This document shows, piece by piece, positions 1 through 41,960 of a DNA stretch of 52,944 nt. The stretch comes from Minisyncoccota bacterium. GTDB lineage: Bacteria; Patescibacteriota; Minisyncoccia; Phycocordibacterales; UBA918. The DNA lies in contig CALJTT010000005.1 in assembly GCA_937975855.1 (NCBI GenBank), positions 1 through 52,944 of the forward strand, written 5' to 3'. The translations under genes and the position numbers were made by a program. Positions within the stretch are counted from its first letter, which is position 1; every line of letters begins with the position of its first letter. The notes beneath the pieces are model-generated. The model ran no database searches. It was not told where the DNA came from and was given only the letters and a program-made list of their open reading frames with translations.

Positions 1-535
1 CGCCGGCGCCCGTTCGCCGCGCACCACCTCGATACCCAATTAGGAAATGTTTTGGGTCTTCGTCTAGATCAATAAAATCATCAACCGCTGCGCGCAGAGC
101 TGATGATGCACTGCGACCAAACGTAATCGCTTCTACCTGGCAGCCCATACTCTGGATGTACTCAACGCCAGGGATAAAATCGCCGTCACCGGTGGCGAAC
201 ACAATGGCGTCGACTTTGTTAGCGAGTTTAATTCCATCAACCACCATCCCGACGTCCCAGTCGGCTTTTTTGGCTCCACCGTAGAAAATCTGTAGGTCTT
301 TGGTTTTGATCTCAATCCCAATTTTTTCCATCGCCTCAAAGAAAGCGCTTTCTTCACCGCCCTCTGTGTTTACCACGTATGAAACGGCGCGGATAAGTTT
401 GCGGTCCTGCACTGCTGCTGACACAACGTTAGCAAAATTAACCTTCGATTTGTATAAATTCTTGGCTGAGTGATACAAGTTTTGTGTATCGATGATCACC
501 GCTACGCGCTGATCGGGGTGTCTAATTACAGACAT
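1..535 (-). CDS. NYN domain (LabA/DUF88) PIN-like nuclease, 3' end outside window
   Basis: Hand translation from ATG 535: MSVIRHPDQRVAVIIDTQNLYH...KKADWDVGMVVD...ATGDGDFIP; shows the IDxxN, KxxxD and GDGDF motifs of NYN. Not in the ORF track because it is truncated. Confidence 0.9.
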   Translation of the reverse strand, partial: MSVIRHPDQRVAVIIDTQNLYHSAKNLYKSKVNFANVVSAAVQDRKLIRAVSYVVNTEGGEESAFFEAMEKIGIEIKTKDLQIFYGGAKKADWDVGMVVDGIKLANKVDAIVFATGDGDFIPGVEYIQSMGCQVEAITFGRSASSALRAAVDDFIDLDEDPKHFLIGYRGGARRTGAG

Positions 536-644
536 ATATATAGTATTAAAATAAGTAAGTGAGTCACTACCTGTGACTCGTGTCGTTGTTATAAAAAAGA
601 AACAAGGAACGACAAGTCCACTATAGCGTAAATAAAGGAAAAAG

Positions 645-670
645 AAAGCGGCCCGTAAAGTGCGGGCCGC
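645..670 (-). terminator. Intrinsic terminator for 699-1418
   Basis: AGCGGCCCG...CGGGCCGCT stem, followed by a T-run on the minus strand. Confidence 0.7.
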
Positions 671-698
671 TGACAGTTTTGTATTTGTTCGACAAAGA

Positions 699-1418
699 TC
701 AGTAACCAGTGTCTCTTCGAGCTTTCTCACTCATCACGACCAGCAGTGGAACCTTGGTGACATGGATAAGCTTCAGCCACTCGATTGGGCTGGGTACCGA
801 ACGTGACATGAAGTCGATGGGAATCGGCGGTTTGTCTTTGCCGTATCCCCAGCGACTTTGCCAGTCCGACGGACTGCTGCGGTTGACATGTTTATCAATG
901 ATCAGCAGTACCTGCCCGTTGACTTTCTGAATTGCCTGGACCTCCTCCTTCAAACGATCCATATGTTCAGGCGTCAAGTAGGTTGTGCCATTACCACCGC
1001 TCATGGAAGGACGATGTTGGTCTCCAAACGTTGTGATGGTCAACTGACGTTGGTCAGCAACGGGTGCATTGTCTCTGCCAGGTATCCACATCGCACCGTG
1101 TTTGTCGTTGGGGCCGATAGCGATCGTTGGAGCCTGTGGCCTGCCATTTCCCGCTGGATTCAGCAGGAGGTGGCCAGTCCGAGTCTGGTACTCATTCCGG
1201 AATCCCGGCCCCATACCACCGTCGGTATCGATGCCCCAGACTCCCTGAACGTTTTGCACGAACGTTAACGAACTCCCAGTATGGACACCGGTTGGCGCGG
1301 GCGGACTAGCCTGTAGAGCAAGCATCTCAGCGCTACGCACCATTTGTTCTTGGGCTGAGAAAACCCAGCCACCCATAGATTCAGGGTCGAGGTATTCAGG
1401 AATGTTAGTTGAAGTCAT
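699..1418 (-). CDS. Hypothetical protein (239 aa), divergent from TrmB regulator
   Basis: Long ORF; ATG 1418 has GGAGG upstream; terminator downstream; no recognisable motif. Confidence 0.65.
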   Translation of the reverse strand: MTSTNIPEYLDPESMGGWVFSAQEQMVRSAEMLALQASPPAPTGVHTGSSLTFVQNVQGVWGIDTDGGMGPGFRNEYQTRTGHLLLNPAGNGRPQAPTIAIGPNDKHGAMWIPGRDNAPVADQRQLTITTFGDQHRPSMSGGNGTTYLTPEHMDRLKEEVQAIQKVNGQVLLIIDKHVNRSSPSDWQSRWGYGKDKPPIPIDFMSRSVPSPIEWLKLIHVTKVPLLVVMSEKARRDTGY

Positions 1419-5479: not shown

Positions 5480-5887
5480 TCACACAAGTGAACCTCCTCC
5501 GTCAGAATCGGTTACAAGTGTCGGGCGTGTTAGAGACTGTCCACAGACACCTTCAGAGTAAGGTTTTACAACCATGAAGGCGCCACCTGTTCTCATAACC
5601 CACCATGAAAGGTGTGTTTTATGGAGGTCGCAGAGACGAAATACTTCTTCTCTGGTCAGTAGTTTTGTTTCATCTCCAGCCGATTCAGGATTAGCTTCTC
5701 TAGATTTCCTTTCCCAAGCAGCCCAGCAAGCTTCACCAAAGGTGCCGTCACCAGTCATAGGCCAGAAGATAGCGAATGAAGGGTCGTCTTGCCGTTGAAC
5801 GAGGCTAGTTGTCAAAGGAGGAGTTTTATGTCCGCGTTCCTGTGACGACGTCGTCCCGCCACCTGTATGCAAGGTGTCATGTAGCAT
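5480..5887 (-). CDS. Hypothetical protein (135 aa) downstream of attenuator
   Basis: AGGGAG SD before ATG 5887; hairpin at 5447-5468 after the stop. Confidence 0.55.
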   Translation of the reverse strand: MLHDTLHTGGGTTSSQERGHKTPPLTTSLVQRQDDPSFAIFWPMTGDGTFGEACWAAWERKSREANPESAGDETKLLTREEVFRLCDLHKTHLSWWVMRTGGAFMVVKPYSEGVCGQSLTRPTLVTDSDGGGSLV

Positions 5888-5927
5888 GTGATTCTCCCTG
5901 TATTTGTAATGAACAATAAAGTACGAA

Positions 5928-6082
5928 ACAAAAAGCGCTCCCAGTCGGGAGCGCTTTTTGTAATAGTGATGTTTCGTCTTACACTAAAGCCCCCGACTGA
6001 GTCAGTTCTGGAACCACTGGGACGAGAGTGTGTGTGTAAGCCATCGTGAATTCAGTATTTCACGATTTAAAATTCTTGGCAA
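5928..6082 (-). promoter_or_regulatory. Leader-peptide transcription attenuator (Thr/Val/Pro-rich leader)
   Basis: TTGCCA-17-AATACT promoter; terminator 5928-5961; antiterminator segment CAGTCGGGGGCTTT (5986-5999) is complementary to the terminator 5' arm and loop. Confidence 0.7.
5979..6044 (-). CDS. Leader peptide MAYTHTLVPVVPELTQSGALV (21 aa)
   Basis: ATG close to the predicted TSS; ORF overlaps the antiterminator segment. Confidence 0.6.
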   Translation of the reverse strand: MAYTHTLVPVVPELTQSGALV

Positions 6083-33449: not shown

Positions 33450-34358
33450 TTAAGAAGGGAAGCTTAGCCAGTCCTTGTAGTCCTCTTCCTGGCCACACAC
33501 TATATTGAAGAAAGTTTGTTTGATTTCATTCGCAGCTGTCAGATCGTACTCAGCCAGAGTCTTGCCTTTTTGATCAATTTTATCAATGGGCGATATTTCA
33601 GCTGCTGTACCAGTAAAGAATGCACTATCAAAATCAGCCACTTCATCTAGCGTGATGTCTCGCTCTACTGTTGTGTAACCCATGTTACTTGTGAAGGTAA
33701 TGACTGAATCGCGAGTGATCCCAGCTAGAATTTTGCCAAGTTTTGGTGTGTGTAGTTCCTTTCCTTTGATAAAGAATATGTTTTCGCCTGGACCTTCTGC
33801 GATATTGTCATTATGGTCAAGTAGCAGGGCCTCCAGATAACCGTTCCTTTTTGCTTGGACAGTAGCCAGAATAGAGTTTACATAGTGACCTGAAATCTTT
33901 GCGTCGCATATCGTGCTTTTTTCAGATATGCGTCGGTAGTCGGATACTTCCACTGATACAGAGTCAGCTAGATACTGGCCCCAGGCCCACGCAGCTATAA
34001 ACACGTGTGTACTGTTTTTGGTTGGGTTGATGCCCATTGAGCTGTCGTCAAAGTACACTATTGGTCGAATGTATGCTTCGGATAGGTTGTTCTCAGTGAC
34101 TGCCTGATGACACGCTTCCATTAATTCAGACTTTGAGTAGGGAATTTCAAGGAATATTTTTTCAGCCGAGTAGAAAAGACGATCGACGTGTTCTTCCAGT
34201 CTGAATATGTGAGTTTTGTTGTCAGTTGTTTCGTAAGCCCGAATTCCTTCGAACACACCAGACCCATAATGGAGCGTATGAGTAAGCGGTGACAAATTCG
34301 TTTCGCTAAATGGAACCAAAGTGCCGTTTAGCCAAACTTTATGATTTTTTTCTAGCAT
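33450..34358 (-). CDS. ilvE: Branched-chain amino acid aminotransferase
   Basis: LHYGSGVFEGIRAY, AKISGHY, EGPGENIF, GITR, TGTAAE. Confidence 0.96.
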   Translation of the reverse strand: MLEKNHKVWLNGTLVPFSETNLSPLTHTLHYGSGVFEGIRAYETTDNKTHIFRLEEHVDRLFYSAEKIFLEIPYSKSELMEACHQAVTENNLSEAYIRPIVYFDDSSMGINPTKNSTHVFIAAWAWGQYLADSVSVEVSDYRRISEKSTICDAKISGHYVNSILATVQAKRNGYLEALLLDHNDNIAEGPGENIFFIKGKELHTPKLGKILAGITRDSVITFTSNMGYTTVERDITLDEVADFDSAFFTGTAAEISPIDKIDQKGKTLAEYDLTAANEIKQTFFNIVCGQEEDYKDWLSFPS

Positions 34359-34432
34359 AAGAAGTAAAGTGTATCAAAAAATGATCGGGCATGCATTTCT
34401 AAGTCACCCTCCTTCCTTTTTTTTGAGTGCTG

Positions 34433-34574
34433 TGATATATTGAAATTAATGAAAATTTTACAAACAGCCTCATATTTCTTTTGGTTTACCAACCGGGAAA
34501 CTCGGGCTGTTTTGACGTAATGTGAACACATTCTCAAAAACCGCGGGTTTCCTACAAGGAACCCGCGGTTTTTG
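34433..34574 (+). promoter_or_regulatory. Leader-peptide attenuator (aromatic amino acid-sensing candidate)
   Basis: TGaTATATT extended -10; 1:2 AAACAGCC/GGCTGTTT; 2:3 GGAAACTCG/CGGGTTTCC; terminator 34535-34574 with T-run. Confidence 0.85.
34449..34520 (+). CDS. Leader peptide MKILQTASYFFWFTNRETRAVLT (23 aa)
   Basis: Leaderless ATG; five consecutive aromatic codons YFFWF. Confidence 0.8.
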   Translation: MKILQTASYFFWFTNRETRAVLT

Positions 34575-34704
34575 TTGGTCGAAAGAAGGATATATTCTAA
34601 AAATGTCTTGCTTTCGGCTCACAATCTCAGTGAGTTCGAATCAACGGGGCCGACCATCGGACGCCCAAACTTAGATCTTCAACAATAAACGAAAGGGCAG
34701 TAAG

Positions 34705-35790
34705 ATGCTTGACTCTACAGACGGATTCGATCCGACTCAATCGCAACCACTTTCAATTGGAGGGTGGGAGACCCAAATAAGCGATCAGCCAGTCGTTTTG
34801 GCGAAGTGGCAGAGAGGCCGGCTGGAAACAGTACTGAATCAACAGTATTTGCCGGCAGTTCGGGAACTATTTCTGGGTAAGCGCCCACAAGGTAATCGGT
34901 GGTTTGCTGAGCAAAATGCGCCGGCGCCGATAGTTAGATTCGACATGGCGCCGATGATCGATGTTCCCGACGAATCGGGTAAAGAAGATCAAGTCACAGC
35001 AGCGCGCGCTGCCGTGGGGCTGGGTATCTGGGAGATCGAGGCAAACACGGCTGGACTTGGCATAGCCACGAAATTGGGTTTGCCGGTTGCGGCACGTCTT
35101 TTCTCCACCCTGCAACAATCTGGTATAAGTCGTATTGGGTATGCAGCGTCAGAATCACGTTCTAACCAAGCTGGTGATTTGCAAGTGCTGATGTCCAATC
35201 TGGAGTCTTACGGAGTGGAAACTGTTCCGGTTAATCTGGACGGCGAAATTCCGGCCGACCTGCCGCTATGGCTTCGCGCTGGAGCAGAGGACTTGGTGGC
35301 TGGCGGTTCGTTGCTGAGTCGACTCCCGCAATGCTTGATGTGGCATCCTGATGGTGGCGGATCGAAACAGTATCTCTTCGATCTTGATCCAAGCGTCACA
35401 CGTGCAAGCGATATCGTAAATCTTGCGTCGGTTCCAACTCGGTTTGACACAGGTGTGGTGCTCAAGCCTATCAATGGTTGGGGCGCTCGAGACATAACCA
35501 TACACGCTCGGGAACAGCCGTTTAAAAAACGGTCAGACAAGGCTGGTCGTTTGTTTTCGACCCTCCAGAGACTCCGTGCACAGGGCGCGGACTCGCAGTA
35601 TCTGCTGCAACGGTTTGCGCCGCCGCAGTCCATTGGTGAGGGCTTTCTGGCGTGGCGAGTGTTGGCGGTGTGGCAGCCTAAGCGACAGGCGTACCAGATC
35701 ATCGGGGGTATCTGGAACTACCGCAAGGGCGATATTCGCTTGCACGGTACACCAGAAACGATCAACGGTCCGATATTAGTCGATAAATAA
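34705..35790 (+). CDS. ATP-grasp ligase (glutathionylspermidine synthase / circularly permuted type)
   Basis: VRFD, WEIEAN-x-AG, SKQYL, VLKPINGWGA, YLLQRF. Confidence 0.65.
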   Translation: MLDSTDGFDPTQSQPLSIGGWETQISDQPVVLAKWQRGRLETVLNQQYLPAVRELFLGKRPQGNRWFAEQNAPAPIVRFDMAPMIDVPDESGKEDQVTAARAAVGLGIWEIEANTAGLGIATKLGLPVAARLFSTLQQSGISRIGYAASESRSNQAGDLQVLMSNLESYGVETVPVNLDGEIPADLPLWLRAGAEDLVAGGSLLSRLPQCLMWHPDGGGSKQYLFDLDPSVTRASDIVNLASVPTRFDTGVVLKPINGWGARDITIHAREQPFKKRSDKAGRLFSTLQRLRAQGADSQYLLQRFAPPQSIGEGFLAWRVLAVWQPKRQAYQIIGGIWNYRKGDIRLHGTPETINGPILVDK

Positions 35791-35861
35791 CCTCGTCCTC
35801 AAAGGGGCGTCGCACTGCGACGCCCCTTTCTCAATTATTAATTATCAATTAAGATGTTGTT

Positions 35862-36764
35862 ATGAGTAAATTTTCAATTGCCATTCACGGAGGAGCGGGT
35901 GCGCTGAGTGACGTGAGTGAGCATCGAACAGCTTTGACCGAAATTATTAACGAAGCCGCTAACTTGGCTTCTAATGCGTCGGCAATTGATGTGGTCGAGC
36001 GAACAGTTGTACTTTTAGAAAACCATCCGTTGTTTAACGCTGGGAAAGGTTCTGTTCTAAACAATAAAGGTGAAGTCGAGTGTGACGCTGCGATCATGAA
36101 TGGTACAGATCTCGATGCTGGGGCTGTTGCAGGAGTTAGAGGAATTAAAAATCCCGTCGCGTTGGCTCGAAAAGTTATGAGTGATAGCGAGCACGTGATG
36201 CTGGTAGGTGATGGAGCTTTAGAATTCGCCGCAAGTGTTAACGCTCCAACGGAGCAGCTAGATTATTTTGTCGTAGAGTCACGGCTGAAGCAGCTAGAAG
36301 AAGCAAAAAAAGCCGGCAAGGTTGTACTTGATCACAGTGATACTGAAGAAGAGAAGTTGGGTACAGTCGGTGCTGTGGCAATTGACGATAAGGGAAATCT
36401 AGCGGCAGCAACCTCTACCGGGGGTATTGTTAACAAGAAGTTTGGGCGAGTTGGTGACTCTCCGGTAGTCGGTGCAGGCGTGTACGCAGAGAATGGATTG
36501 TGTGCTGTTTCTGCAACTGGGTTTGGTGAGCAATTTTTACGCACAACCCTGAGTAAACATATTGGTGACTGGATGAGATACAATCATGTTGATGCTCAAT
36601 CAGCTGCTCAGGCTGGCATTGACTATCTGGTTGAAAAAGTGAATGGATTGGGTGGTGTGATTGTGGTTGATGCAAATTATAATATCGGTATTGCTCACAG
36701 TACCCCATTGATTTTGTCGGCTAGTATTTGTTCGGGAGAGACAGGCGCAAGACTTGATTTTTAA
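35862..36764 (+). CDS. iaaA: Isoaspartyl peptidase / L-asparaginase (Ntn hydrolase)
   Basis: IHGGAG, FNAGKG, GTVGAVA, ATSTGG, GRVGDSP. Confidence 0.95.
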   Translation: MSKFSIAIHGGAGALSDVSEHRTALTEIINEAANLASNASAIDVVERTVVLLENHPLFNAGKGSVLNNKGEVECDAAIMNGTDLDAGAVAGVRGIKNPVALARKVMSDSEHVMLVGDGALEFAASVNAPTEQLDYFVVESRLKQLEEAKKAGKVVLDHSDTEEEKLGTVGAVAIDDKGNLAAATSTGGIVNKKFGRVGDSPVVGAGVYAENGLCAVSATGFGEQFLRTTLSKHIGDWMRYNHVDAQSAAQAGIDYLVEKVNGLGGVIVVDANYNIGIAHSTPLILSASICSGETGARLDF

Positions 36765-36991
36765 TTCAAAGAGAAAAGCCGTCGGACCCCTCCGACGGCT
36801 TTTCCCATTTGGGTTTAAGAATATTCTAGGAAAGAACTACGCTATATACTTCCCGCGCCGCTATCTTCAGTCATGCGGGAATTGCTATGATACGCTTGCT
36901 TACTAAACTTACAATAAAATGCGTGTGTACATTGAGTGAATCTGGTCAATCTGATACGCTTCCATTAAGTTGTCAATAAAATCATCTCGTT

Positions 36992-38157: not shown

Positions 38158-39240
38158 TTAATTTCCTTCTTGCAAGATGGCTAGTAGGAATGGTGTGAGA
38201 GTCTCTTCGAACACTTGTGATCGGATTGCCAGATTGCCTCCCAGGTGCCCATCAAGTGAAAATCCAGTTTCTTCCTCGATTGTCATCTCAACGTGCGACA
38301 GAGTTATGGCTCGCAGGCTGCCTGGTCCGTCTGTGGCGTCGTCACCGCGGGTTACGATCATTCCGATAACGTTCCCATCAGCGTCAAGCACTGGCCCTCC
38401 AGAGGCGCCCTCAGCACCCACAACACTGCCTCGGATTGAGAACACATCAGCTCGGTTTGATCCAAATGTATATAGTTCAGAAATACTAGTGTCTGCCCGC
38501 CTCGGGATCAGATCGGTGGCCGCTCCTCCTCGCAACAAGTCACCGGCTGGGTAGCCCGCAGCAACAACGTCAGAATTTCTGTCATTAGTTGAAAGGAATT
38601 CGGTAGAGTAAGGCAGGGCAGGGAAGGCAGCTGGAAGTGGCAGTCCACTGATTGTCCCGTCTACATACAGCAAAGCATAGTCACGCTCTCCGGTGCCAGT
38701 TGGAACAGCGTCGTTTAGTACAGAGGCGTTTTCCTGCACCCAGGCTGGAGGAATGTATAGCAGGGCAGCAGTGTACATCGCGCTGGCTGGGTTGCCAGAA
38801 CGGATGACGCATTCCGCCTCGCCATAGTCGTCGGTTGCCGCCAAGAGCAGGAACTGCGCCACATGTGCGTTGGTCATGATGACTCCGTCTGGGTCGATAA
38901 AGAAACCAGTTCCGGTGGTGGTGCGAATCTGTGTCTCAGTCCGGAACGTACAAAAAATATTCACCGTTGCATCCAGAGGGTCGCTGGTGGTCGGGTCGCT
39001 CAAACCAACCGCGTTCCCAACCGCAGCTTGTTGGTAAGCGGCGCTTTTTAAAAGAATATCAGGAATAGAAGATAGACGACTCGGAAGTTCGTTCATGAAC
39101 GACCCCTGATTCGATTCTTCCACCATCGCTGATGGCGCGCTGTCGTCGCTAAATAAGTTTGTAATACCACCGGCGAGGGAGTTGGTTAAGGCAACGTAGC
39201 CAGTAAGTATCCCAATAAAAAGATCAGAAATAAATGACAT
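38158..39240 (-). CDS. Trypsin-like (S1) serine protease, exported
   Basis: TNAHV, DYALL, GASGGP catalytic triad motifs. Confidence 0.88.
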   Translation of the reverse strand: MSFISDLFIGILTGYVALTNSLAGGITNLFSDDSAPSAMVEESNQGSFMNELPSRLSSIPDILLKSAAYQQAAVGNAVGLSDPTTSDPLDATVNIFCTFRTETQIRTTTGTGFFIDPDGVIMTNAHVAQFLLLAATDDYGEAECVIRSGNPASAMYTAALLYIPPAWVQENASVLNDAVPTGTGERDYALLYVDGTISGLPLPAAFPALPYSTEFLSTNDRNSDVVAAGYPAGDLLRGGAATDLIPRRADTSISELYTFGSNRADVFSIRGSVVGAEGASGGPVLDADGNVIGMIVTRGDDATDGPGSLRAITLSHVEMTIEEETGFSLDGHLGGNLAIRSQVFEETLTPFLLAILQEGN

Positions 39241-39315: not shown

Positions 39316-39386
39316 GCGGGATTAGTTAAATGGTATAACATCTGCCTTCCAAGCAGAGGTCAGGAGTTCGATTCCCCTATCCCGCA
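39316..39386 (+). tRNA. tRNA-Gly (TCC), integration target
   Basis: Cloverleaf; TCTGC-CTTCCAA-GCAGA anticodon arm. Confidence 0.96.
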
Positions 39387-40841
39387 CATCATCGAAAAAC
39401 TAGCATCAGAAGGGGTGTTTGCTAGTAAGTCATACGGACTTTTAACCTTAGTTTCCAATACTTTTCTATCTTTCAGCGAACCGTTCGATAGTACTTCGTA
39501 GGCTATTTCTCGCTTCCGCTTTGGCGATGCCTTCACATACCTAGATTTGGCCCTATTGCTGAACAAAAACAGGTTTTTCGTCCGTTCGAGAGTGACGTAC
39601 GGGTCTTGGTGGTTCTGCTTCATTTGTTGCAAATTTTGCTCGAGTGACAACTTTGCCAGTTTAATTTCTTTTTGCTTTTCGTCGTAGATTGTCTGGTCGA
39701 TATTGCTAGCCAGAAAGGCATCAAGTAGTCGACCTTCCTTTTCTTTGATGGCAGTGATTTCAGTTTCAAGGTTTGCTAAGACCTCAGTATTGAACGTGTC
39801 TTCATGCTCAACCTTTTCTTTGGCTGCTTGGTACATGAGTTCAATTAACTCTTCGTCAAACTTGATATCGTCAAATATCTGCACAAACTGCTCTTCCAGT
39901 TTCTCTTGTCTTAAGAATAATTTCTTCTGGTCGCAGATACCTTTCCCATTAGTGCAGTGATAATACGTGTAGCCTTTTTGTACCTCTGCGGTAACGGCAC
40001 ACCCACAGACACCGCAGGTAAATAGTCCAGTTAGCGGGAAGAGGTGTTTTTGTTTGCGAGGTTTCGCACCACCCGTCATTACCTCTTGGCAAGTTTCAAA
40101 CTTGTCTTTGGTTGTCATGGTCGGACAGGCTGATTTGTAATAGTTACCACCGTAACGAATTATTCCGTGGTAAATAGGGTTCTGCAAAATGTGACGTACG
40201 GTACCAGGATGTACTTTTTTGCCAGCAGTGGTTCGCAAACCTCTTTGATATAATTCAGCAGCTAATTCCTTAAAACTGTATCTACCAGTTGAATAGAGGT
40301 CGAACATTATCTGCACGTACTTGCTACGCACAGGGTCGAGTATAAGTGTCTTGTCGGCTTTGTTATTTAGATAGCCAAATGGTGCGTAGCAGGGGTAGCC
40401 ACCTTGGTTTAGTTTCTCTCGATTTCCCCGTTTGACATTCTCAGACAGGTCTCGCGAAAATTGGTTTGCCACACCAAGTTCAAACAACATCAGATAGACA
40501 GGTTCACTAGGTAGGTATTCCTTACTGGGAGTCTGGATACTTTTTATGACTGACTGTTGCAACAGGTCAATTACCAAACCACCATCGACTAAGTTTCGAG
40601 CTAGTCTGTCCAGTTTCCACACCAACAACCCGTCAGCTTTACCAGACTGAATACGATTCATCACTTCAGCAAACACTGGCCTGCCAATTGTTTTAGCAGA
40701 GCGGCTTTCATGGTGGACTTCAGATATTTCAAGATTATTTCTAGCTGCATACTCACGCAACTCTCGCTCTTGTGCATCCAGTGATTGAACTTGTCTGTCT
40801 TCAGATTCTTGTGATTTTCGGCAGTATAAGATGTATTTCAT
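39360..40841 (-). CDS. Large serine recombinase (integrase); last codons are antisense to the tRNA
   Basis: YCRKS catalytic Ser, LDRLARN, APFGY, CGVCG...YYHC Zn ribbon, coiled coil. Confidence 0.95.
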   Translation of the reverse strand: MKYILYCRKSQESEDRQVQSLDAQERELREYAARNNLEISEVHHESRSAKTIGRPVFAEVMNRIQSGKADGLLVWKLDRLARNLVDGGLVIDLLQQSVIKSIQTPSKEYLPSEPVYLMLFELGVANQFSRDLSENVKRGNREKLNQGGYPCYAPFGYLNNKADKTLILDPVRSKYVQIMFDLYSTGRYSFKELAAELYQRGLRTTAGKKVHPGTVRHILQNPIYHGIIRYGGNYYKSACPTMTTKDKFETCQEVMTGGAKPRKQKHLFPLTGLFTCGVCGCAVTAEVQKGYTYYHCTNGKGICDQKKLFLRQEKLEEQFVQIFDDIKFDEELIELMYQAAKEKVEHEDTFNTEVLANLETEITAIKEKEGRLLDAFLASNIDQTIYDEKQKEIKLAKLSLEQNLQQMKQNHQDPYVTLERTKNLFLFSNRAKSRYVKASPKRKREIAYEVLSNGSLKDRKVLETKVKSPYDLLANTPSDASFSMMCGIGESNS

Positions 40842-40860
40842 ATGATAACGATCGTTAGCA

Positions 40861-41688
40861 TTACGTCACAGTATATAAACTTCGTAATTCTTGCAACTGG
40901 TTAGTATCTAGATTGTATGTTGCATGAAATGTTGGGTTCTCAACTACTGGTCTGTCTTCGTTTGGTTTAGTTATGTATGCGTACATAGGTTTATAGTCTG
41001 ATAGATAATCCATAATCTCTCCCGCTATGTGTTCATAGGAAACTATCTCAGGTTTATACAGACCTCTACTAGAGAAGTATTTCTTTCGCCCGATAAGACG
41101 TTTATCCAGCGCGTCTTTAGTCAGATACTTTGTCATGTACAACTCAACGTTTGGGACGTTAGTAATATTCTTCTTTTTGATAAAACCCTGCTCCCACAAT
41201 GCTGCAAATTCACCCGTTAAGTATTCATGACGAGCGTTAATCATTGGTAAGTTAAAGAATGCTGCATGGTAGTGAACTGCACCTCGGTCTTGGAATTCTG
41301 GTACGACAACATATTTCACGACGCACTCTTTCGTGCCAAAAGTGTGATAGTTGAGTCGTTTGATGTAATTGGTGAATAATGGATTAGCTTCCTGGACGGT
41401 TTTAATATTTTCGTGGATGGTATAGGTAATAAATTGAGGTTTAATAACTACATCTTGTTCATCTTTCCACATTCGTGCATTAGCATTCACTAGACGTATC
41501 AGAGCATTTTTTGTACGACTCAATGAACTAGCGGTAATTTCTTGCTCATGTAAGGCACGACGTTTCCGATATGGCGCCTGTTTTCTGCTTGATTCCAAGT
41601 TAAACCCAACAGGCTTGGCAAACTGCTGTGCTTCTACGATGTGGCCAGAAATGATTATTTTGTAATAACTAACTCTTGCTCTGCTCAT
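40861..41688 (-). CDS. HUH rolling-circle replication initiator
   Basis: Motif I FITYT, motif II EFQDRGAVHYH, motif III YMTKYLTK; likely start MSRAR. Confidence 0.85.
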   Translation of the reverse strand: MSRARVSYYKIIISGHIVEAQQFAKPVGFNLESSRKQAPYRKRRALHEQEITASSLSRTKNALIRLVNANARMWKDEQDVVIKPQFITYTIHENIKTVQEANPLFTNYIKRLNYHTFGTKECVVKYVVVPEFQDRGAVHYHAAFFNLPMINARHEYLTGEFAALWEQGFIKKKNITNVPNVELYMTKYLTKDALDKRLIGRKKYFSSRGLYKPEIVSYEHIAGEIMDYLSDYKPMYAYITKPNEDRPVVENPTFHATYNLDTNQLQELRSLYTVT

Positions 41689-41704
41689 GAATGGTGTCGA
41701 ATTA

Positions 41705-41810
41705 TGTGTATATAAAATCAAGTCACTTTCTGCTCCGCAGAAAGGCCGTCGTGCGGCCTTTCGCCTCACCCCTTTCGGGGGTGAGGGCGAGGCGAAGGCC
41801 GACCGCGACC
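41705..41810 (-). other. Putative double-strand origin
   Basis: GC-rich hairpins next to GACTTGAT (41717-41724), similar to phiX174/pC194 CTTGAT nick sites; directly upstream of rep. Confidence 0.5.
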
Positions 41811-41960
41811 ACCACCCACCTCTTTCGGGAAGGAAAATGACGTGTAGAGTTGCGCAAATGACGCCAAGTGAGACTGCGCCCGCTCGACAGACACAGCAAT
41901 ACCGCACCTTCGTTGCAGGTATTGCTGATATCTCTCTACGAGTGCGTGACTAAACTCCAT
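41766..41960 (-). CDS. Small element protein (64 aa), possible accessory/directionality factor
   Basis: Helical N-terminal ~45 aa; co-oriented upstream of rep and int. Confidence 0.55.
   Translation of the reverse strand: MEFSHALVERYQQYLQRRCGIAVSVERAQSHLASFAQLYTSFSFPKEVGGGRGRPSPRPHPRKG

Follow-up and report, generated by a model that had tools for sequence, protein, structure and literature searches.

A putative leader-peptide attenuator with tandem aromatic codons precedes an ATP-grasp ligase and amidohydrolase pair in a Minisyncoccota bacterium

The locus described here occupies positions 34433 to 36764 of a 52,944-nucleotide (nt) stretch of DNA, contig CALJTT010000005.1 of assembly GCA_937975855.1, which is assigned to a Minisyncoccota bacterium and is referred to below, at its full length, as the window. 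The genome of origin is small (0.66 Mb at 66% completeness), and genomes of the genus span 0.5–1.7 Mb. Reading along the plus strand, the locus is made up of a promoter-like −10 element, a leader mini-ORF (short open reading frame) rich in aromatic codons, a hairpin terminator, a second structured domain, the ORF of an ATP-grasp ligase (34705–35790) and the gene of an Asparaginase_2-type hydrolase (35862–36764). The subject of this report is the leader in front of the two enzymes, a candidate transcription attenuator, together with the genes that such a device would control.

The leader mini-ORF (34449–34520, plus strand) is the ATG-started part of the longer frame P0001, comprises 23 codons followed by TAA, translates as MKILQTASYFFWFTNRETRAVLT and has homologous in-frame counterparts in the genus. 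Its codons 9–13 (34473–34487) are TAT TTC TTT TGG TTT (Tyr, Phe, Phe, Trp, Phe) and are the proposed regulatory codons; the five tandem aromatic codons covering Tyr, Phe and Trp that a first-pass annotation of this DNA had pointed out are therefore present, and lie inside the mini-ORF. The run is not a product of chance. Aromatic residues account for 8.7% of residues in those ORFs of the window genome that encode at least 200 amino acids (aa), and an aromatic run of at least five residues occurs there once in 164,107 residues. A crude genome-wide scan for mini-ORFs followed by terminators, which was dominated by gene 3′ ends, showed no comparable aromatic run among the other units listed. Two minus-strand ORFs over the leader (34352–34537 and 34470–34622) were considered and rejected, their translations being implausible as peptides. 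Upstream, the −10 promoter element (34433–34441, plus strand) consists of a TG at 34433–34434 and a hexamer at 34436–34441 that ends 7 nt before the ATG, and among the 24 loci in which a −10-like hexamer was recognised, 18 have it 6–9 nt ahead of the leader ATG. No Shine–Dalgarno sequence or other ribosome-binding site was seen in the sequence upstream of the mini-ORF ATG. With the −10 box only 6–9 nt from the ATG, the transcript would be leaderless or nearly so, and transcription probably starts at or near the start codon itself.

Folding of the 278-nt leader gives a z-score of −5.2 relative to shuffled sequences, none of 200 shuffles equalling it, and the minimum free energy (MFE) fold contains an outer helix, a terminator hairpin (34536–34573) with a U-run, and three hairpins at approximately 34577–34668. 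The 5′ strand of the outer helix, here called region 1 (34462–34470, plus strand), pairs in this fold with 34504–34512 in a duplex of −14.0 kcal/mol (shuffled mean −7.2 kcal/mol, 5 of 300 shuffles as good). Region 2 (34495–34512, plus strand), which lies within mini-ORF codons 16–21, resembles the terminator 3′ arm and can act as the 5′ strand of an antiterminator by pairing with the terminator 5′ arm, at −11.5 kcal/mol (9 of 200 shuffles as good). The intrinsic terminator itself (34536–34577, plus strand) is formed by a 5′ arm at 34536–34552, a loop at 34553–34557, a 3′ arm at 34558–34573 and the U-run; it is GC-rich, has a ΔG of −20.1 kcal/mol in our own scan, and is bidirectional in form owing to an A-run on its 5′ side. 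This fold and terminator energy bear out the alternative pairings, strong terminator and three further hairpins described in the earlier annotation. Following the terminator is a second structured domain of the 5′ untranslated region (UTR) (34574–34640, plus strand), with a long variable hairpin at 34580–34616 and a short one at 34617–34635, in which 11 of 19 predicted pairs show compensatory changes across 11 sequences. We also observed that this domain is kept between terminator and start codon at the matching stretch in 10 loci (alignment A4), and that its short hairpin carries a conserved GCAA, for which the end of the terminator U-run is an alternative pairing partner.

The leader is not confined to this genome. 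A DNA search of 128 genomes of the genus recovered the stretch 34464–34587 at 69–83% identity in 10 other genomes, and the aligned copies have in common the ATG, the aromatic codon run, a hairpin within the ORF and the terminator, as well as another structured domain ahead of the following start codon. A covariance model (R1) built from 11 leader copies then gave full-length matches of at least 44 bits in 29 of the 128 genomes, the window genome included; the larger figure obtained at E up to 0.01, 79 of 128, was set aside, since it is made up largely of partial matches to the terminator half. Inspection of 20 weaker matches, taken with a second stretch of the window (5926–6044), yielded two more aromatic leaders, two other leader-like mini-ORFs and otherwise what look like plain terminators, so that the family is present in 29–31 of the genomes. 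Phe, Tyr and Trp contribute 26% of the residues in 30 leaders, all three being present in 25; the longest uninterrupted aromatic run is at least five residues in 22 and at least four in 26. The order and identity of the aromatic codons differ between species, and the run stays aromatic with the ATG in frame. An ATG in frame with the run, together with a stop codon 6–20 nt before the terminator arm, is found in 29 of 31 copies. On this comparison of sequences, the leader unit is a conserved family and not a chance arrangement. Matching DNA sequencing runs numbered four, from marine or seawater metagenomes and two of them possible sources, with no RNA run among those listed.

Both of the competing helices covary over 31 aligned copies. 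The terminator is 95.5% paired, with 112 compensatory cells and both sides changed in 19 of 22 pairs. The antiterminator, a helix that was not in the model to which the alignment was fitted, is paired in 88.2% of cells, with both sides changed in 9 of 11 pairs; none of 500 shuffles reached as high a pairing, and slid controls gave 22–59%. Column 146, for example, forms UA, CG and UG with its antiterminator partner and AU, GC and CG with its terminator partner, and covariation of the same terminator columns with both partners is the signature of mutually exclusive structures. These parts, their conservation and the covariation of the two helices are computed observations. A short helix between columns 41–47 and 75–80 is 90.8% paired, its variation being mostly one-sided. 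One copy has Arg replaced by Glu and Arg by Gln in region 2 with the hairpin retained, which indicates that selection in this region is on the RNA rather than the peptide, and nucleotide conservation in the leader is above that of the following gene in 9 of 10 pairs (in one, 98% versus 76%).

Two explanations that dispense with translation can be weighed at this point. In the first, the terminator is constitutively leaky and is followed by a structured 5′ UTR, nothing is sensed, and the mini-ORF is incidental to a U-rich RNA element; the great diversity of the genes behind the leader would suit such an arrangement, as would equilibrium folds that favour the terminator under all ribosome placements. 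A mere leaky terminator would not, however, call for frame, ATG and stop position to be kept in 29 of 31 copies, for length differences before the run to come as whole codons, for aromatic identity to survive codon changes or for the alternative helix to covary, and we judge it very unlikely. In the second, an RNA that binds a protein, a tRNA or a ligand (a T-box, a TRAP-like element or a riboswitch) controls the terminator, for which the conserved structured domain 3′ of the terminator could be cited. That domain comes after the terminator rather than before it, the loops of the conserved hairpins vary in length and sequence, and the reading frame of the mini-ORF is conserved; in addition, Rfam returned four tRNAs but no family for the leader at gathering score, and chance-level matches only for the leader at E up to 10. 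We consider this the least probable of the explanations discussed here.

The same arrangement recurs in front of the ligase in organisms far from the genus. A profile of the ligase found it in 2 of the 128 genus genomes, in 5 of 401 phylum-sampled genomes at E ≤1e-10 (six weaker phylum matches were left out of the locus count) and in 7 of 401 class-sampled genomes. Eleven of the 12 ligase loci had 340 nt of upstream DNA, locus L068 having none, and in 9 of the 11 an ATG mini-ORF, with at least three aromatic residues in seven, ends at a terminator-like hairpin; the two exceptions are L077 and the N-terminally extended L078. These nine positive loci represent eight genera in distant families of the phylum, two being from one genus. 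In all nine leaders the 3′ part of the ORF forms a duplex with the terminator arm that at most 9 of 200 shuffles match, and Trp adjoins Phe in eight.

From these observations we think it likely that the leader acts by ribosome-mediated (leader-peptide) attenuation of transcription, of the trp/phe type, and senses the supply of aromatic aminoacyl-tRNAs. RNA polymerase would start at or beside the ATG of the 23-codon mini-ORF. When charged tRNA-Tyr, tRNA-Phe and tRNA-Trp are plentiful, the translating ribosome would reach the stop codon and cover region 2, upon which the terminator would fold and transcription would stop. Were one of these tRNAs scarce, the ribosome would stall at the aromatic codons 34473–34487 and hold region 1 apart; region 2, thus freed, would pair with the terminator 5′ arm, and the polymerase would read through into the ligase gene and probably on into the Asparaginase_2 hydrolase gene. 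We infer the leaderless start, the dependence on a ribosome and the aromatic signal from sequence. The attenuator put forward in the first-pass annotation gains support in this way from three directions, namely the covariation of leader, terminator and the antiterminator that overlaps the mini-ORF, the retention of aromatic codons as their order and identity change, and the presence of an aromatic mini-ORF with a terminator before the ligase in most of the ligase loci.

Several observations weigh against attenuation by aromatic supply. Three copies of the leader are degraded (in L049 a stop codon interrupts the run, and the runs of L054 and L062 are weak), and the sequences are kin, so that the shuffle controls overstate the support. 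The distant ligase leaders have only three or four aromatic residues in seven, in AT-rich DNA that favours Phe and Tyr codons. The 5′ helix is the weaker part of the structure: a helix of the region 1:2 type exceeds 95% of shuffles in 13 of 29 family copies, the window included, a result obtained with a per-sequence duplex test since the column tally in alignment A7 was uninformative, its 5′ part being poorly aligned. The terminator at 34536–34577 went unlisted in a simple consensus terminator scan, a probable cause being pairing between its U-run and the flanking A-run. When the leader is folded in full at equilibrium, the terminator results whether the aromatic codons carry a ribosome or are free. 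In RNA truncated ahead of the 3′ arm, the antiterminator needs no ribosome to form (some 15 of the 19 bases of the arm are paired) and forms likewise when a ribosome sits on the aromatic codons, and a ribosome placed at the stop codon lowers the number of paired arm bases only to 9.6; formation of a ribosome-free antiterminator means that thermodynamics alone is no proof of ribosome dependence. Finally, the gated genes are neither aromatic biosynthesis nor charging genes but, in most members of the genus, unrelated small ORFs of no known family, for which aromatic supply has no obvious importance. Since equilibrium folds do not separate the two states, the terminator decision must, as in classical attenuators, be kinetic.

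The nature of the gated genes also bears on a further possibility, in which the RNA switch is the same and what stalls the ribosome is not scarce charged tRNA but the growing aromatic peptide within the exit tunnel, acting jointly with a small molecule; the small molecule could be an aromatic amino acid in free form, as for TnaC, or a drug that binds the ribosome, as for erm leaders. Targets that are not biosynthetic are in keeping with this, as is the motif of Trp-Phe followed by Thr or Ser, nearly invariant in the genus, with Trp–Phe adjacency persisting in eight of the nine distant ligase leaders. The invariant Trp and Phe codons sit, however, in the helix of columns 41–47 with 75–80, so that RNA pairing can explain their constancy. 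The residues before Trp-Phe vary freely among Tyr, Phe and Trp, those after it change with compensating changes in the RNA, and there is no fixed spacing to the stop codon, the peptides being 21–28 residues long with variable tails. We therefore regard stalling in the exit tunnel as unlikely, and continue with attenuation by aminoacyl-tRNA supply as the preferred explanation.

The first of the two genes behind the window leader encodes a protein of 361 aa (34705–35790, plus strand), is preceded by a purine-rich ribosome-binding site, and was recognised as an ATP-grasp ligase by fold only. Neither Pfam nor NCBIfam gave a family for it at E up to 0.001, ATPgrasp_ST (E 0.28) being the only entry short of that threshold; it has no sequence match in the PDB, where a profile search gave DcsG at E 0.36, and none of 50 relatives matches an ATP-grasp family. 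A word-based search of 5.8 billion proteins returned the query itself only, and metagenome contigs searched with the single ligase protein gave no relative. A full HMMER search of 1.84 billion representatives did find relatives, 82 in number. The description of this gene as an orphan ATP-grasp in the first-pass annotation thus holds as regards family databases, from which it is missing, and as regards its fold, but not literally. An AlphaFold model built with an alignment of 50 relatives has a predicted local distance difference test (pLDDT) score of 92 and a predicted template modelling (pTM) score of 0.91, as against a pLDDT of 32 from the single sequence. Compared with known structures, the model aligns with glutathionylspermidine synthetase over 293 residues (Z 20.5, root-mean-square deviation 3.8), followed by YgiC (Z 19.3), trypanothione synthetase (Z 16.7) and fungal Cp1B (Z 15.6); the whole-chain matches (residues 1–361) have Z of 20.5, 19.3, 17.7 and 16.7, eukaryotic-type glutathione synthetases score 11.6–14.6, and Foldseek matches have E of 9e-10 and weaker. 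R78, K221, K254 and Q302 are invariant in the family, and D80, E110, R318 and H347 nearly so. With its three-domain ATP-grasp fold the protein thereby falls in the group of glutathionylspermidine synthetase, YgiC and eukaryotic-type glutathione synthetase, and the match to the first two points to a small-molecule-type ATP-grasp rather than a graspetide cyclase. On the strength of the modelled fold, it is probably an ATP-grasp of the small-molecule amide-ligase type whose family is uncharacterised. As a separate observation, the G+C content of the ligase gene is 0.50–0.55 against 0.39–0.47 in its flanks (window 34600–36000), and a trypsin-like gene at 38200–39200 is likewise richer; the higher value may reflect acquisition from elsewhere or a gene-specific composition.

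Some of the relatives by fold have assigned activities. YgiC and YjfC are paralogues of E. coli glutathionylspermidine synthetase. They are described as peptide-spermidine ligases (PMC12568646, citing Pederick et al. 2023), and Cp1B is described as joining a dicarboxylic acid to an amino acid (PMC12568646). The likeness to glutathionylspermidine synthetase and YgiC (PDB 2io7 and 7uka) extends over the whole chain (286–293 residues, Foldseek E 9e-10 to 6e-8); the ligase differs from both in having only 13% sequence identity to them, no Pfam match and no amidase domain, and in being always accompanied by a downstream amidohydrolase, with an aromatic leader upstream.

The fold also bears on a third type of explanation, a variant of which the first-pass annotation had offered as its own alternative: that the peptide is a graspetide-like substrate. 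In such a scheme, resembling ribosomally synthesised and post-translationally modified peptide (RiPP) clusters, the mini-ORF peptide would be modified or extended by the ligase, the hydrolase would be a maturation protease, and the hairpin would set the ratio of the two messages. A short ORF followed by a hairpin, an ATP-grasp gene and a peptidase gene does recall the order in RiPP clusters and recurs in the ligase loci (mini-ORF in 9 of 11, hydrolase in 12 of 12), and the peptide contains Thr, Ser and Glu. The ligase model, on the other hand, fits small-molecule ligases with Z of 15.6–20.5 and the graspetide enzymes MdnC, PsnB and 7mgv with Z of only 4.7, 4.9 and 5.2, over the C-terminal half (residues 140–361). 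In the genus, moreover, the ligase occurs in 2 of 128 genomes and the leader in 29–31, at least 27 of them without the ligase; the position of the leader before unrelated small ORFs in most members argues against a RiPP substrate. A hairpin that merely sets a message ratio would not need an antiterminator within the ORF that covaries with the terminator, and the leader is almost devoid of synonymous change in close pairs (98% nucleotide identity against 76% in the following gene). The graspetide alternative is thus not supported, and a RiPP-like role for the peptide appears highly improbable to us.

The second gene (35862–36764, plus strand) encodes an Asparaginase_2 N-terminal nucleophile (Ntn) hydrolase of the isoaspartyl/beta-aspartyl peptidase type (PF01112, E 2.6e-90, residues 5–289); against the NCBIfam equivalog NF007589 it scores 244.8 bits, under the cut-off of 567, so that the assignment is to the family rather than to one exact activity. 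A GC-rich hairpin with a weak T-rich tail (35804–35826, plus strand) lies between the ligase and hydrolase genes; it was read from the sequence and is not listed by the simple consensus scan, and its role may be that of a stabiliser or of an incomplete terminator. The two-gene unit is closed by a hairpin terminator at 36771–36806, which the simple scan lists on the minus strand with 16 pairs and for which the plus-strand reading is ours, from the sequence. An association of the ligase with a hydrolase, suggested by the earlier annotation in the form of a possible reversing enzyme, is strengthened by the wider comparison, in which an amidohydrolase is the next same-strand gene in all 12 ligase loci. 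The type of partner varies, being Asparaginase_2 in three loci, Peptidase_M20 in six (that of L081 was judged by its near identity to L080, without a scan of its own), AstE/AspA in two and GATase_4 in one. The pairing with Asparaginase_2 recurs in genomes G123 and G916; at locus L076 of the latter (G916:C12, 3522–3947), a DUF2000 gene comes after the ligase and Asparaginase_2 genes and overlaps the hydrolase stop codon.

In the LysX/ArgX and LysK pathway with its LysW carrier, an ATP-grasp enzyme adds a protecting gamma-glutamyl-type amide which an M20 hydrolase removes. The ligase loci resemble this pathway in joining an ATP-grasp to a hydrolase that is most often of the M20 type, yet the fold match to LysX/ArgX (PDB 5k2m and 3vpb) is weaker (Z 8.1–8.4, C-terminal half only), and no kinase, reductase or transaminase genes were seen within 1.5-kb flanks. 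We think it most likely that the ligase–hydrolase pair forms and breaks down an amide that links an amine or an amino acid to a dicarboxylic acid or a peptide.

In most members of the genus, the leader, including its second structured domain, precedes not a ligase but a short ORF of 51–127 aa. Each of these cargo ORFs has its own ribosome-binding site, and a hairpin follows each wherever downstream DNA was read. Comparison of 27 of them gave groups of nine, five and three with 10 singletons, none resembling the ligase, the hydrolase or MscS, and searches for known families were negative in Pfam (0 of 11), NCBIfam (0 of 13) and PHROGs (0 of 13). At L061, a truncated cargo behind a Trp-rich leader matches glutamate-cysteine ligase/YbdK weakly (E 7e-5, well short of the cut-off). 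On the 3′ side of its ligase–hydrolase unit the window has an MscS-type channel gene, and a gene of this type follows the leader cassette in five loci in all, the window included, from which it appears that the window ligase–hydrolase pair occupies the slot taken by small ORFs elsewhere. On the other side of the leader, the divergent ilvE gene (33450–34358, minus strand) does adjoin the locus as the first-pass annotation stated; as a neighbour it is not conserved in the loci compared. We further noticed that many otherwise dissimilar cargo proteins share an N-terminal Thr-Phe-Val-Pro-x-Gly-Asn (L045, L046, L051, L055, L058, L059 and others) and that several of the shortest end in Val-Asp-Leu.

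The sensor part of the cassette also varies. Locus L044/L008 (G121:C10, approximately 491–1145, minus strand) contains tandem leader cassettes with one small ORF behind each, the second leader having three consecutive Trp codons in place of the mixed run. L090 (G127:C34, minus strand, 501–619) is a paralogous leader in a genome that also holds an aromatic leader; its region 2 and terminator are unchanged and a Ser/Arg-rich stretch replaces the aromatic run, which hints that a leader cassette can change the codons it senses.

Leader-peptide attenuation is a textbook mechanism for biosynthetic operons of free-living bacteria. In E. coli the trpL, pheL and pheST leaders each sense a single amino acid, act on biosynthesis or charging targets and belong to mRNAs with a 5′ leader that carries a ribosome-binding site. 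The window leader shares with them a short ORF with tandem codons for the amino acids presumably sensed, an intrinsic terminator and a set of mutually exclusive helices (2:3, 3:4 and a putative 1:2), and differs in that its 1:2 helix is weaker and its antiterminator forms by default on energy. Classical attenuation at trpL, pheL and pheST is mentioned in PMC11802643 and PMC3082878. The closest named case, going by the account in the former review (PMC11802643, citing Neshat et al. 2014), is aroR of Corynebacterium glutamicum, a leader in front of the aroF operon, which has Phe-Tyr-Phe codons and in which aromatic codons are mixed in a leader-peptide attenuator and ribosome stalling raises downstream transcription, as is proposed for the window leader. 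The target of aroR is the biosynthetic enzyme 3-deoxy-D-arabino-heptulosonate 7-phosphate (DAHP) synthase, the host is a prototroph, and the leader has no Trp codon. By contrast, the run described here has five or six codons, usually of Tyr, Phe and Trp together, the host group shows no chorismate synthase in 31 genomes searched, and the gated genes are a ligase–hydrolase pair or small ORFs. The mechanism would thus belong to known leader-peptide attenuation, and what sets it apart is the combination of three aromatics in one run, a probably leaderless start, an apparently auxotrophic ultra-small host, non-biosynthetic targets and re-use as a portable cassette. In the full-text literature searched, no paper was found that connects leader-peptide attenuation to Patescibacteria, and the same search with Saccharibacteria gave nothing relevant among the matches listed.

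A search for chorismate synthase found it in none of 31 relatives and in all of 14 control genomes, and on this evidence the organism is apparently incapable of aromatic amino-acid synthesis. With such an apparent auxotrophy, the switch would report outside supply rather than control biosynthesis. Much more tentatively, and as one possibility on which we would place limited weight, the leader may be a portable aromatic-starvation sensor of ultra-small auxotrophs, gating either a previously unknown two-enzyme module for salvage or conjugation, made up of a glutathionylspermidine-synthetase-like ligase and an interchangeable amidohydrolase, or, in most species of the genus, fast-evolving small proteins that possibly act on a host or partner cell. 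If this is true, the ligase family would be the first enzyme family tied to the aromatic amino-acid economy of these organisms. The leader is coupled over a long evolutionary distance to an uncharacterised ligase–hydrolase pair and has been re-used in one genus before many unrelated small genes. It offers a handle on how ultra-small symbionts sense nutrient supply and on the role of an unannotated ATP-grasp family, for which the sensor codons suggest the first substrates to try.

Elsewhere in the window, a second unit of the same build lies at 5926–6044 (minus strand) and is matched weakly by the leader model (30.7 bits). Its mini-ORF of 21 codons, Val/Pro/Thr-rich and not aromatic, comes right after a promoter-like AT-rich stretch, and the end of this mini-ORF can pair with the 5′ arm of a hairpin terminator; the ORF behind the terminator (5480–5887, minus strand, 135 aa) belongs to no known family. 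Further along, a tRNA gene (39316–39386, plus strand) overlaps the gene of a large serine recombinase (39360–40841, minus strand) at the 3′ end of the latter, and next to the recombinase gene stands a replication-initiator-like gene (40861–41907, minus strand), and from this gene content the stretch 39316–41907 is likely to be an integrated mobile element.

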